A DNA stretch of 64,000 bases from Arcobacteraceae bacterium (GCA_963662945.1 OY759974.1:1440001-1504000), one strand, 5' to 3'; positions 21,800 through 53,631 are shown, counted from the first letter of the stretch. Program-made: numbers and translations. The notes: generated from the sequence alone by a model not told the origin.

Positions 21800-21903
21800 T
21801 GCTTCTCTTAGACCTTTACAATTAACTTTAAAGGCAACTCCCCAGGGTAGGAATACAGCAAGGAACCTTTATCTTTGGTGTGTTTAGGTATCTGGGAGGA
21901 GTA
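21800..21903 (+). ncRNA. ffs: Signal recognition particle 4.5S RNA
   Basis: Domain IV signature CAGG-GTA-GGAA-TAC-AGCA. Ends pair (TGCTTCTCTTAGA / TCTGGGAGGAGTA). About 104 nt. TACAAT at 21744. Confidence 0.9.
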
Positions 21904-49797: not shown

Positions 49798-50757
49798 ATG
49801 TATGCTTCGTTTAAGTCTATAGGTGCTTATATGCCTAGTGAGATTCGTACAAATCAATGGTTTATTGATAGAATGGATACTAGTGATGAATGGATTACAA
49901 AAAGAACAGGTATTAAAGAACGAAGAATTGCATCTGATGATGAAGAAACGAGTGATTTAGGTGCAAAAGCAGCACAAATTGCAATTGACAGAGCAGGCAT
50001 ATCTAATAATGATATAGATTTGATAATATGTGCAACAATTAGTCCTGATTATATGTGTATGCCTTCAACTGCATGTTTAATAGCAGAGAAGTTGGGAAGA
50101 AGAGATGTTATGGCACTTGATATAAGTGCTGCATGTACTGGATTTATATATGCATTAAGTGTTGCAAAAGCTTTTATTGAATCAGGTATGAAAAAAAATG
50201 TGTTAATAATTGGTGCCGAAAAACTAAGTAATATTGTTGACTATACAGATAGAACTACTTGTATGCTTTTTGGTGATGGGGCAGGTGCCGCTGTTATAAG
50301 TTCTACAGAAGATAAAAATGAAGCAATTATAGATATTCAATGTAGTGCTGATGGAAGTCAGAAAGACTTACTTTTAACTCCAAGTGTTCAGAGTAGCGAA
50401 GCTTCTTTTATGCAGATGAAAGGAAATGAAACTTTTAAAATAGCAGTAAGAACACTTACTTCTGATGTGCAAAAGATTATGGAAAAAAATAATTATAAAA
50501 ATGAAGATATAGATCTTTTTATACCGCATCAAGCAAATTATAGAATAATAAAAGCTGTAGGGGATGCTCTAAACTTTGAAGATAATCAAAAAGTATTAAC
50601 TGTTGATAAATATGGTAATACATCTTCTGCATCAATTCCAATGGCAATAAATGAATGTTTTGAAGATGGACGTTTAACAAAAGGGAAAACAATTTTACTT
50701 GATGCTTTTGGTGGCGGATTAACTTGGGGTTCTGCAATTATTAAATTTAATGGTTAA
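49798..50757 (+). CDS. fabH: Beta-ketoacyl-ACP synthase III
   Basis: AACTGF, FGDGAGA, PHQAN, GNTSSAS, GGGLTWG. Confidence 0.97.
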
Positions 50758-50789
50758 GCTATAATTAAATATAGTCTTGATACAATCAA

Positions 50790-50865
50790 CTAAATAGCCA
50801 AACTTACTGTGAAGTAAGGACGGAAAGCTACGGATCTTGATTTTAAGATGGCCGAGTTGCAACTT
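50790..50865 (+). promoter_or_regulatory. Cyclic di-GMP-I (GEMM) riboswitch aptamer, variant
   Basis: GCCAAA-CTTACT[GTGA]AGTAAG-GACGGAAAGCTACGG-ATCTT[gatttt]AAGAT-GGCCGAGTTGC follows the GEMM layout of P2 with GNRA loop, GAC..AAAG junction, P3 and GUURC. Confidence 0.85.
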
Positions 50866-50921
50866 ACAATACAACTCTCAATTTTTAAATCAATATTTAT
50901 TTTAAATTTATAGGACTAACA

Positions 50922-51170
50922 ATGATTAAGAATCAGAAAAATGGTAGAATAAATTTTAAAATGGTATTGATATTAACATTAATCCTAGCTGGTTTTATTT
51001 ACTATTGGTATGTAACTAAAGATTCTTTAGATGAAACATATAAAATAAAATCAGCAGGTGGTGATTTTGGATATAAGCAGACTTATATCAATAGAACAGG
51101 GAAAGATGTTGAAGAAAAAAAAATTAATCTATCTGATGATTATTGGACTGGCGGTAAGTTTGGTTTTTAG
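50922..51170 (+). CDS. Small single-TM hypothetical protein (paralog A)
   Basis: AGGA SD, TM MVLILTLILAGFIYYWYV, C-terminal motif shared with the next gene. Confidence 0.82.
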   Translation: MIKNQKNGRINFKMVLILTLILAGFIYYWYVTKDSLDETYKIKSAGGDFGYKQTYINRTGKDVEEKKINLSDDYWTGGKFGF

Positions 51171-51190
51171 TTTATAATGAGGAGAATATT

Positions 51191-51403
51191 ATGAATAAGA
51201 AAACGACATCAATTATTGCAATAATTGCAGCATTTAGTTTTATTGTGATAACAAATTTTGATACTTTAACAAAAAAAAGTGATGAGAAGTATGTAATTCA
51301 AAAATGGCAATCTACATATATTAATTCAACAGGTCAAAAAGCAAAAGATAATAAAATAGAGCTTTCAAATAACTATTGGGAAGGTGGAAAGTTTAGTTTT
51401 TAA
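51191..51403 (+). CDS. Small single-TM/signal-bearing hypothetical protein (paralog B)
   Basis: GAGGAG SD, hydrophobic N-terminus, 17/29 identity to paralog A over the last 29 residues. Confidence 0.82.
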   Translation: MNKKTTSIIAIIAAFSFIVITNFDTLTKKSDEKYVIQKWQSTYINSTGQKAKDNKIELSNNYWEGGKFSF

Positions 51404-53631
51404 TTATAATTAAAACTAAACTCTTCTCCTTTATAGTCTATTGTAACATTCCCACCATCTTTTAAAGCTCCAAAGAGAATTTCATCTGTTAGTGGTGTTT
51501 TGATATATTCTGTAATAACTCTTTGAAGTGGTCTCGCTCCCATAAGTTTATCATATCCTTTGTGTGCTAATTCTTTTTTCGCATTGGTTGTTAACTTAAT
51601 AGTTATATTTTTATCAGCTAAATTAGCTTCTAAATCTTTAATAAACTTAGTTACAATTTTTAATAATATTGGTTGTGTAAGTTGTTCAAATTTTACAACA
51701 GTATCAAGTCTATTTCTAAACTCTGGTGCAAAGAATTTTTTTACAGCTTTATCTTCATTAAGATTATCATCTTTTGCAAATCCCATAATACTAGCTTGAG
51801 TTGCACCAAGGTTTGATGTCATAATTAATATAACATTTTGAAAACTAGCTACAGTACCATTATTATCTGTAAGGGTTGCATTATCCATAACTTGTAGAAG
51901 TAAAGACATAAGATCAGGATGTGCTTTTTCAATTTCATCTAGAAGTAATACAGTGTGAGGATGTTTTTTAATAGATTCTGTTAATAATCCCCCTTTCTCA
52001 TAACCAATATATCCAGCAGGGGCACCAATAAGACGACTTACTGTATGTGCTTCTCCATATTCAGACATATCAAATCTTTCAAAATGAATACCCATAACGT
52101 GAGCTAATTCTTTAGCAACTTCGGTTTTTCCAACTCCTGTACTTCCTGTAAATAAGAAACTACCTACTGGCTTATTGTCTATACCCATACCAGATCGATT
52201 TATTTTAATTGATTTTACAATTGTTTTAATTGCTTCGTCTTGACCAAATACTCTTTTTTGAAGATTTAGTTCTAGATTTTTTAACAAACTTAAATCTGAT
52301 TTAGTTGCAGTTTTTGGTGGAATTTGGGCAATATTTGCAATTGTATTTTCTACATCTTTTTCTGTAATTTTAACAATTTTCCCTTTTTTAGAAAGCTTCA
52401 CTGTTGCTGCAACTTCATCTATTACATCAATTGCACTATCTGGTAAAAATCTATCGTTAATAAATTTTTTACTTAATTCAACGGCTAATTTTAAACTCTC
52501 CCCAGTATATTGTACATTGTGAAACTCTTCATATTTTGCTTTTAAGCCTTCTAGAATTAATACACAATCATCAAGAGAAGGCTCTTTTACTTCAACTTTT
52601 GCAAATCGTCTACTAAAAGCTTTATCTTTTCCAAAGTCATTTCGATATTCTTCATAAGTTGTAGCACCAATAACTCTGAGTTTTCCTGAACTAAGCATAG
52701 GTTTTAAGATATTTGATGCATCCATTGCACTATTTCCTACACTTCCTGCACCCACTACTGTATGGATTTCATCTATGAAAAGAATAGCATTTTTCTTTCT
52801 ACTTACCTCTTGCAAAACAGCTTTGAGTTTCTTCTCAAAATCACCTCTGTATTTAGTTCCAGCAATCATCGAACCCATATCTAAAGAATATATTTTTGCA
52901 TCACGTAGAAATTCAGGTACTTTTTCATTTACAATTTCTAATGCTAATCCTTCTGCAATGGCAGTTTTCCCAACACCAGTTTCCCCTAAAAGAATTGGAT
53001 TGTTTTTCTTTCTTCTTGCTAATATTTCAATAACTCTTTTTATCTCTTTATCACGTCCAATAACAGGATCAATTTGTCCCTCTTTAGCAAGGGACACAAG
53101 TTCAACACTATTTTGTTGCAAAGGTGTTTCTTGAGTTTTCTTTTTGTAATCTTTTACTTTACTAAATTCAAGTGGTGTATCATCATCTTCTTGTTCTCTA
53201 GATTCTCCATGGCTTATCTCTTCAAGAATATCAATTCTTTCTAAACCATATTCTCTTAAAAGAAAAGTACAATATGCTTTTTCATCTTTTAGGATATAGA
53301 CGAACATATCTTCAACTGTTGATTCTCCTTTTCCTGAAAGTTGAGAATGTGAAACCATTTGTTCTATTGTAGTAGTTAATGTAACTGTTTCTATTGGATC
53401 TTCATTTTTATATTCTTCAGGATATTGTGGAGTGTTTTCTAGAATATAATTTTTTAGTTTTATTTCAACATCTTCAACATCTATGTTTAATTGATTTAAA
53501 ATACCAAAAATAGACTGTTCTTTTAAAAGATAGACAAAAATATGTTCAATTGTTATATATTCATGTCTATTTGCTCTTGCATAGTTTACTGCTTCAGAAA
53601 ATACTCTTTGTAGATTTTTACTTATTAACAT
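51400..53631 (-). CDS. clpA: ATP-dependent Clp protease ATPase subunit
   Basis: HEYITIEH, two Walker A motifs (GETGVGKT, GSTGVGKT), RFDMSEY, FAPEFRNRLD. Follows clpS. Confidence 0.96.
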   Translation of the reverse strand: MLISKNLQRVFSEAVNYARANRHEYITIEHIFVYLLKEQSIFGILNQLNIDVEDVEIKLKNYILENTPQYPEEYKNEDPIETVTLTTTIEQMVSHSQLSGKGESTVEDMFVYILKDEKAYCTFLLREYGLERIDILEEISHGESREQEDDDTPLEFSKVKDYKKKTQETPLQQNSVELVSLAKEGQIDPVIGRDKEIKRVIEILARRKKNNPILLGETGVGKTAIAEGLALEIVNEKVPEFLRDAKIYSLDMGSMIAGTKYRGDFEKKLKAVLQEVSRKKNAILFIDEIHTVVGAGSVGNSAMDASNILKPMLSSGKLRVIGATTYEEYRNDFGKDKAFSRRFAKVEVKEPSLDDCVLILEGLKAKYEEFHNVQYTGESLKLAVELSKKFINDRFLPDSAIDVIDEVAATVKLSKKGKIVKITEKDVENTIANIAQIPPKTATKSDLSLLKNLELNLQKRVFGQDEAIKTIVKSIKINRSGMGIDNKPVGSFLFTGSTGVGKTEVAKELAHVMGIHFERFDMSEYGEAHTVSRLIGAPAGYIGYEKGGLLTESIKKHPHTVLLLDEIEKAHPDLMSLLLQVMDNATLTDNNGTVASFQNVILIMTSNLGATQASIMGFAKDDNLNEDKAVKKFFAPEFRNRLDTVVKFEQLTQPILLKIVTKFIKDLEANLADKNITIKLTTNAKKELAHKGYDKLMGARPLQRVITEYIKTPLTDEILFGALKDGGNVTIDYKGEEFSFNYN

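Follow-up and report, generated by a model that had tools for sequence, protein, structure and literature searches.

The intergenic unit that lies between fabH and clpA in the genome of an Arcobacteraceae bacterium (GCA_963662945.1, OY759974.1) raises a simple question: which genes does its cyclic di-GMP (c-di-GMP) riboswitch control, in which direction, and what could their products do? The window, i.e. the whole stretch of 64,000 nucleotides (nt) that was analysed, corresponds to G000:C1:1440001-1504000 and belongs to a host genome (G000) made of a single contig of 2.50 Mb; positions in this genome are counted below from the first letter of the window. We propose, as the best explanation of the locus and with a probability of about 60%, that a two-gene operon encoding small envelope proteins facing the periplasm is placed under a canonical c-di-GMP-I riboswitch acting as an ON switch. 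Riboswitches for c-di-GMP are well known and many of their targets are unannotated; what is found here is a standard c-di-GMP-I riboswitch with an undescribed and narrowly distributed small-protein target. A literature search returned nothing on c-di-GMP control at the riboswitch level in Arcobacter or Campylobacterota.

The identification of the aptamer is based on two Rfam models. RF01051 matches positions 50787-50864 in the genome search with 62 bits for a gathering cut-off of 35 (E 9e-12), and RF03167, the model of the c-di-GMP-I-GGC variant, reaches 62.5 bits for a cut-off of 59 (E 2.3e-12, cmscan of the whole window); the GEMM-type aptamer proposed by the initial annotation of this DNA is thus recovered by covariance models. 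The first hairpin carries a GUGA tetraloop (GNRA-type), and alignment to the model consensus places the equivalents of the ligand-contact bases at G 50797, A 50824 and C 50860. In the Vc2 riboswitch, these contacts are G20, A47 and C92, according to the published description (PMC4744006). When the 16 aptamers that precede members of the protein family described below were aligned, compensatory double changes were seen in 9 of the 20 predicted pairs, and the contact triad was found to be conserved as G in 16/16, A in 16/16 and C in 15/16 sequences, the exception (L019) having a U.

The consensus sequences of the two models show a sole difference in the junction after the first hairpin (GACGC-A-AAgCc in RF01051 versus GACGC-G-AAgCc in RF03167). 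The variant label was rejected for the window aptamer, which has an A at this base (50824, model position 37), as do its 16 relatives, where the variant consensus has a G. Because RF01051 is only 0.5 bit below RF03167 and 27 bits over its own cut-off, we regard the GGC label as a scoring tie. With a triad equivalent to G20/A47/C92 of Vc2 and an A at the variant position, the aptamer was therefore filed as canonical and, judged from these alignments, it is a member of the c-di-GMP-I (GEMM-I) riboswitch class with the canonical G/A/C triad. As a separate observation, the L019 aptamer (L019:1375-1454 in genome G122, the same place as L027), which precedes a divergent family member, keeps the G and A contacts and has the U at the C92-equivalent; its best Rfam model is c-di-GMP-I-UAU (69.8 bits for a cut-off of 65.9), only one of the two variant positions fits the consensus of this model (G, not U, being present at model position 10), and its ligand specificity may be altered.

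In the 2.50-Mb genome, the window aptamer is the sole match to RF01051 or RF03167 at E<=1, no c-di-GMP-II riboswitch was matched at the same threshold, and 39 GGDEF-domain matches were counted, of which 38 are over the Pfam cut-off. With 39 such matches and one c-di-GMP riboswitch found, two proteins of 70-82 amino acids (aa) stand out as a direct target of c-di-GMP signalling. The elements of the unit, including the two open reading frames (ORF1 and ORF2), are the following, with the basis of each; dN/dS is the ratio of nonsynonymous to synonymous substitution rates and AF2 stands for AlphaFold2.

50760-50765, plus strand: upstream -10-like box TATAAT (alternative promoter), read from the sequence.
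50778-50786, plus strand: extended -10-like box TGATACAAT, read likewise, with box spacing compared across leaders.
50788-50865, plus strand: c-di-GMP-I (GEMM-I) aptamer, from the RF03167 and RF01051 matches and covariation.
50854-50886, plus strand: terminator-like hairpin (GAGUUG/CAACUC pairing and UUUUU), from folding and leader comparison.
50912-50915, plus strand: AGGA, putative ribosome-binding site of ORF1, read by eye, 6 nt 5' of the ATG.
50922-51170, plus strand: ORF1, 82 aa, from translation, homologues, dN/dS and AF2.
51179-51184, plus strand: GAGGAG, putative ribosome-binding site of ORF2, read by eye, 6 nt 5' of the ATG.
51191-51403, plus strand: ORF2, 70 aa, paralogue of ORF1, from translation, BLASTP, dN/dS and AF2.

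This intergenic unit is flanked by fabH (49798-50757) and by the convergent clpA (51400-53631, minus strand), plsX being located further upstream. PlsX, FabH and ClpA each exceed their own NCBIfam cut-off, in agreement, for fabH and clpA, with the genetic setting that had been described from the sequence, and the two ORFs of 82 and 70 aa, each preceded by a Shine-Dalgarno motif (AGGA and GAGGAG), were found where they had been placed. The stop codons of ORF2 (51401-51403, plus strand) and clpA (51400-51402, minus strand) overlap.

ORF1 and ORF2 are 38% identical over 69 columns (BLASTP, E 8e-13), and their C-termini align without gaps with 17 identical residues out of 29, a figure given in the initial annotation and obtained again when counted on the translations. 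The dN/dS values are 0.10, 0.32 and 0.21 for ORF1 and 0.18, 0.15 and 0.12 for ORF2, in six pairwise comparisons among the window, L006 and L008 (pairs with L005, whose lengths differ, were left out). Judged from these comparisons, ORF1 and ORF2 are real paralogous genes under purifying selection. Across 47 family sequences, L70, W75 and G78 are invariant, and I56, N57, G60, S71, K79 and F80 are conserved in at least 90%.

Both proteins begin with a single N-terminal hydrophobic helix, as had been noticed from the translations. ORF1 combines a basic N-terminus, a confident AF2 helix at residues 12-39 and the C-terminal segment LSDDYWTGGKFGF (51129-51167), and ORF2 an AF2 helix at residues 3-21 and the C-terminal segment LSNNYWEGGKFSF (51362-51400). 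The N-terminal flank counts +3 (ORF1) and +2 (ORF2) in lysine and arginine, with no acidic residue ahead of the hydrophobic core; the hydrophobic stretch is long and passes into aromatic residues with no obvious small-x-small site. After the helix come 40-45 residues that close with LSDxYWxGGKF in both proteins. As the basic flank of a membrane helix stays on the cytoplasmic side (positive-inside rule), the C-terminal domain should face the periplasm. An envelope location is inferred from the basic N-terminus followed by one hydrophobic helix, and from the signal-peptide-like N-termini of divergent members.

Scans of the two proteins and of 47 family members against Pfam and NCBIfam gave nothing at cut-off, and the C-terminal domains scanned alone had no match in either collection, nor any in a profile search of the PDB at E<=10. 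When the family profile was compared with the PDB, the sole similarity concerned the N-terminal membrane anchor of the Staphylococcus aureus monofunctional glycosyltransferase (E 0.02), and the best score in the ESM Atlas was 0.78, under the useful range. Homologue clusters number 17 for ORF1 and 14 for ORF2, all of 70-85 aa and, where named, called "hypothetical protein". When 1.84 billion representatives were searched exhaustively with the profile, 13 proteins matched: small family members account for nine (eight with 70-89 aa, the last with 48 aa), and the remaining four are giant repeat proteins in which about 20 residues are matched per repeat; no longer fused form was present among 68 candidates. 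On the basis of these searches, the ORF1/ORF2 family is unnamed, and the initial statement that no family could be recognised holds. Several sub-threshold candidates (Salyut, DUF6693, DUF3139, the halocin precursor model and TIGR03066) were rejected as driven by the membrane segment; DUF3139 (PF11337) scores 15.4 bits for a gathering score of 27.3, and the NCBIfam halocin match (E 0.0031) 17 bits for a cut-off of 200. DUF3386 (PF11866) was also set aside, with 14-19 bits (at most 19.1) for 25 and in the ORF2 group only; its recurrence counts as one observation because the members of this group are about 75-90% identical to each other.

The family was found in few genomes. A six-frame profile search detected it in 16 of the 184 genomes of the taxonomic family, including G000 (14/27 genomes in the genus of the window, 1/2 in one other genus). 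Across 401 sampled genomes of the class, matches were restricted to G000 and two cases judged spurious, one with three stop codons within the match (G541) and one inside a 234-aa frame with E 9.5e-4 (G387). A pattern scan of genome contigs confirmed 11 loci, all titled Arcobacteraceae, Campylobacterales or Campylobacterota and including the isolate Arcobacter sp. 15-2.

The association with the riboswitch is nearly constant: a riboswitch of clan CL00126 (gathering score) is found directly 5' of the gene in 14 of the 15 other genomes with a family match, a co-occurrence that the initial annotation had proposed to test. The plsX-fabH synteny is shared by 13 of the 15 loci, and 8 of these 13 also have the convergent clpA. 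L018 and L019, the two weakest profile matches, occupy other loci and have the riboswitch too. Downstream genes were examined at 25 other RF01051 loci, of the 85 RF01051 matches in the taxonomic family; divergent members missed by the first profile were found in this way in G132, G134 and G135, downstream of RF01051 matches. Those of L025, L026 and L028, all behind riboswitches, have signal-peptide-like N-termini and a LSDE[FY]WTSGRF tail. Since a riboswitch is also present at L018, L019, L025, L026 and L028, the aptamer-gene link recurs in at least three genomic contexts. As far as these genomes indicate, the riboswitch-gene link is conserved across the protein family, which is itself confined to a subset of Arcobacteraceae. 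Two family matches per genome were seen only in G000, G115, G131 and G138 (4/16), most relatives carrying one gene; the tandem pair is therefore a recent sub-clade duplication and not a family-wide property, and the hetero-oligomer suggested in the initial annotation is left unsupported.

Concerning the promoter, a TGnTAnnnT box ends 10 nt 5' of the G20-equivalent in the window, L006, L007, L008 and L015, and 13 nt in L005 (6/15 leaders). With such spacing the RNA would begin some 3-4 nt 5' of the aptamer core, too close for a P1 helix to form; in the window, the TGATACAAT box would place the transcription start near 50793. The two -10 boxes named in the initial annotation are present at their positions and are absent from the output of a generic sigma-70 scan, which found 5 sites versus 6.8 expected in shuffles.

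Downstream of the start, GAGUUG (50854-50859), made of the 3' arm of the second aptamer helix and the junction G, can pair with CAACUC (50872-50877), and a U-tract (UUUUU, 50882-50886) follows. Both arms and the T-run are present in 7 of the 15 leaders, the arms being kept while the loop varies; in L006 and L007 arms and loop are identical to those of the window. Since the aptamer itself supplies one arm, this hairpin should not form once the ligand is bound, which argues for an ON switch by anti-termination. We give the expression platform somewhat better than even odds of being an ON switch.

The mechanism that we propose would proceed as follows. Transcription would start few bases 5' of the aptamer core; when the ligand is absent, the 3' arm of the second aptamer helix would pair with CAACUC to form a weak terminator followed by the U-tract, and when c-di-GMP is bound this arm would be held in the aptamer, allowing read-through. 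The products would be inserted with the N-terminus inside and the C-terminus outside through an uncleaved signal-anchor helix (a cleavable signal peptide in the divergent relatives), and a C-terminal domain of about 45 residues, with LSDxYWxGGKF at its end, would be exposed to the periplasm. The products would be small envelope factors of the high-c-di-GMP (sessile) programme and would probably act by binding a partner, because the exposed domain does not fold confidently alone.

Several observations weigh against this proposal and must be set beside it. Given the inferred start site, the closing helix P1 is practically absent, and its few pairs are partly non-canonical in the RF03167 alignment. 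The hairpin has a minimum free energy of only -5.5 kcal/mol (z -1.32), 21 of 200 shuffles folding equally well; a terminator scan of 50600-51600 called 0 sites, and the exact CAACUC arrangement is absent from 8 of the 15 leaders. As to the linkage, 12 of the 14 riboswitch-positive loci are the same syntenic fabH locus and are not independent observations. At L009 (1481-1734, G128) no riboswitch is found even at E<=1, the gene starting 14 nt after the fabH stop; the small gene is there presumably co-transcribed with plsX-fabH, and this loss means that riboswitch control is not obligatory. Finally, the predicted local distance difference test (pLDDT) of AF2 is about 50 for the C-terminal domain of both paralogues, so no functional clue comes from the fold, the exception being a short beta-hairpin at the TYINxTG motif of ORF2.

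The weakness of the candidate terminator, matched by shuffles and not called by the terminator scan, leaves some room for an opposite or different control, in which c-di-GMP represses (OFF switch) or acts mainly on translation or RNA stability. OFF switches are frequent among class I c-di-GMP riboswitches elsewhere, and the folds of L018 point that way: folding of the full leader brings a downstream segment into pairing with the 5' arm of the second aptamer helix, and the 3' part of this leader can fold into a hairpin that covers the ribosome-binding site, i.e. a Shine-Dalgarno-sequestering hairpin that could act in the opposite direction. The sole conserved post-aptamer hairpin, however, takes its 5' arm from the aptamer in 7/15 leaders, so that the ligand should prevent it, and no anti-Shine-Dalgarno element is evident in the AU-rich leader of the window; we therefore hold repression or translational control to be rather unlikely. 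That the aptamer belongs to the GGC variant class and binds another ligand, or senses c-di-GMP with altered properties, seems to us highly improbable: RF03167 is the top model for the window and for 9 of 14 related aptamers, but the junction A and the half-bit tie set out above speak for the canonical class.

Other alternatives concern the product and not the switch. The N-termini of L018, L019, L025, L026 and L028 look like Sec signal peptides of the cleavable type, the hydrophobic core being followed by small residues, and no independent folding is predicted for the C-terminal domain; both would suit secreted peptides that serve in signalling, in the matrix, in adhesion or as antagonists. 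In the window proteins, however, the long hydrophobic stretch running into aromatics offers no obvious cleavage site of this kind, and the halocin similarity is far under its threshold, which makes secretion an unlikely reading. The RNA could also be the main output, with riboswitch-gated transcription tuning the head-on clpA gene through transcriptional interference or an antisense effect. A transcript of the small operon may continue antisense into clpA: the two stops overlap, no terminator-like site was found up to 51600, and the convergent clpA is kept at 8/13 syntenic loci. In the other 5/13, however, clpA is missing within the fetched DNA, with a different next gene in L009; divergent members occur at unrelated loci, and the purifying selection on both ORFs, with their invariant residues, points to protein products. 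We consider this last explanation very unlikely. A two-gene operon switched on by c-di-GMP and encoding periplasm-facing envelope proteins is still the reading that we prefer.

Some transcript data bear on the unit. A 207-nt contig of a sediment metatranscriptome covers 50797-50996 with 19 differences, its source being a relative, and joins the aptamer, the leader and the start of ORF1; since DNA may have been carried over into the library, the hint is weak. The metatranscriptome runs (six, and a seventh only guessed to be RNA) cover only small shares of the window. Four runs were compared with it: two had no match, and two gave short contigs from relatives (about 90-95% identity), one of these two runs being probably DNA. 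Such contigs show neither a start site nor an expression level.

Other c-di-GMP-I riboswitches of Arcobacteraceae precede different genes. Flagellins of 266-267 aa are encoded immediately 3' of the riboswitch in L030, L042 and L050 (G120, G078 and G140), and in each case another flagellin-like ORF comes next. Pfam recovered Flagellin_N and Flagellin_C in L030 and L042; the L050 protein was assigned by reading. In the L042 region, about 450 bases of one contig (G078:C18:5383-5837) hold three RF01051 matches, two of them plus-strand and the third minus-strand, and the flagellin locus may be surrounded by divergent and tandem riboswitches. A further group of tiny proteins, 56-76 aa long, is encoded directly behind riboswitches in other genera, at L029, L031-L035 and L041 (G145, G181, G144, G071, G183, G179 and G083); they have a polar N-terminal part with W-[SRN]-[FL] and a C-terminal hydrophobic tail (tail-anchored), and those of L029, L033, L034 and L041 had no match in a Pfam scan. 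At L037, L038, L040, L043 and L049, riboswitches lead genes of 61-66 aa. Their products, which look pilin-like by eye, combine a charged N-terminus and a hydrophobic segment with a KGAMDK motif, and a Pfam scan of the L037 and L040 proteins gave no match. In four of these five loci the next ORF carries a GGGDIKY motif and encodes a multi-pass membrane protein (about 145-163 aa); at L037 it is a second copy of the small gene. Further targets in the bacterial family are 40-aa hydrophobic peptides and one GNAT-like protein. Taken together, the flagellins and tiny membrane proteins would fit a surface or envelope role in the switch from motile to sessile life. Elsewhere in the window, the small bacterial signal recognition particle RNA at 21805-21901 (47.9 bits for a cut-off of 40) is ordinary.

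A broader idea, doubtful at this stage, is that the riboswitch branch of c-di-GMP signalling in Arcobacteraceae serves mainly tiny proteins that are exported or membrane-bound, namely the LSDxYWxGGKF family, the tail-anchored set (about 57-76 aa) and the 40-aa hydrophobic peptides. The twins of the window, the sole riboswitch output of this genome, would then belong to an unrecognised class of c-di-GMP-induced periplasmic micro-effectors, which would bind and switch an envelope machine (for example the flagellar or pilus apparatus, or matrix export) at the turn to sessile life. In practice, a small, unnamed and riboswitch-linked family is one where simple genetics could give orphan small proteins a first function, and the GGC label, being a scoring tie, is a caution for the automated annotation of aptamers.

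Comparison with known systems concerns both the proteins and the RNA. On the protein side, about 20 residues (a TYxIxYxNxTGK hairpin) are matched in each repeat of the four giant proteins, and scanning two of them (P0040 and P0042) showed that the repeats are DUF11 (PF01345), Ig-like repeats of Gram-positive surface adhesins; AF2 places a beta-hairpin at the same motif in ORF2. However, only one hairpin of a domain of about 110 residues is matched. Membership in DUF11 was rejected, as the similarity spans about 20 residues and DUF11 is absent from the 25 Pfam families listed of the 31 matched by the 47 members at E<=0.1; we read the resemblance as a shared short beta-hairpin motif and not as homology.

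On the RNA side, the window aptamer resembles RF01051 and Vc2 of Vibrio cholerae in its two hairpins, its GNRA-type (GUGA) first-hairpin tetraloop and its G/A/C triad. It differs in P1, which is very short or absent, the aptamer probably beginning few bases from the 5' end of the transcript, and in a short second hairpin (9 positions of the RF01051 model are deleted in the L007 aptamer, which is near-identical to that of the window). RF03167 is its best-scoring model, over cut-off, from which it departs by the A at 50824 in place of the variant G. Vc1, another riboswitch of V. cholerae, activates expression. It is located upstream of gbpA and belongs to the class I c-di-GMP riboswitches, whose triad it conserves (PMC4744006). 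The expression platforms of the two are unrelated, and the gbpA product is a large and characterised colonisation factor, whereas the genes in the window encode two members of an unnamed family, each about 80 aa long; what the window shares with Vc1-gbpA is a class I riboswitch with its triad placed before a gene for an exported, surface-related product, export being predicted in the present case.

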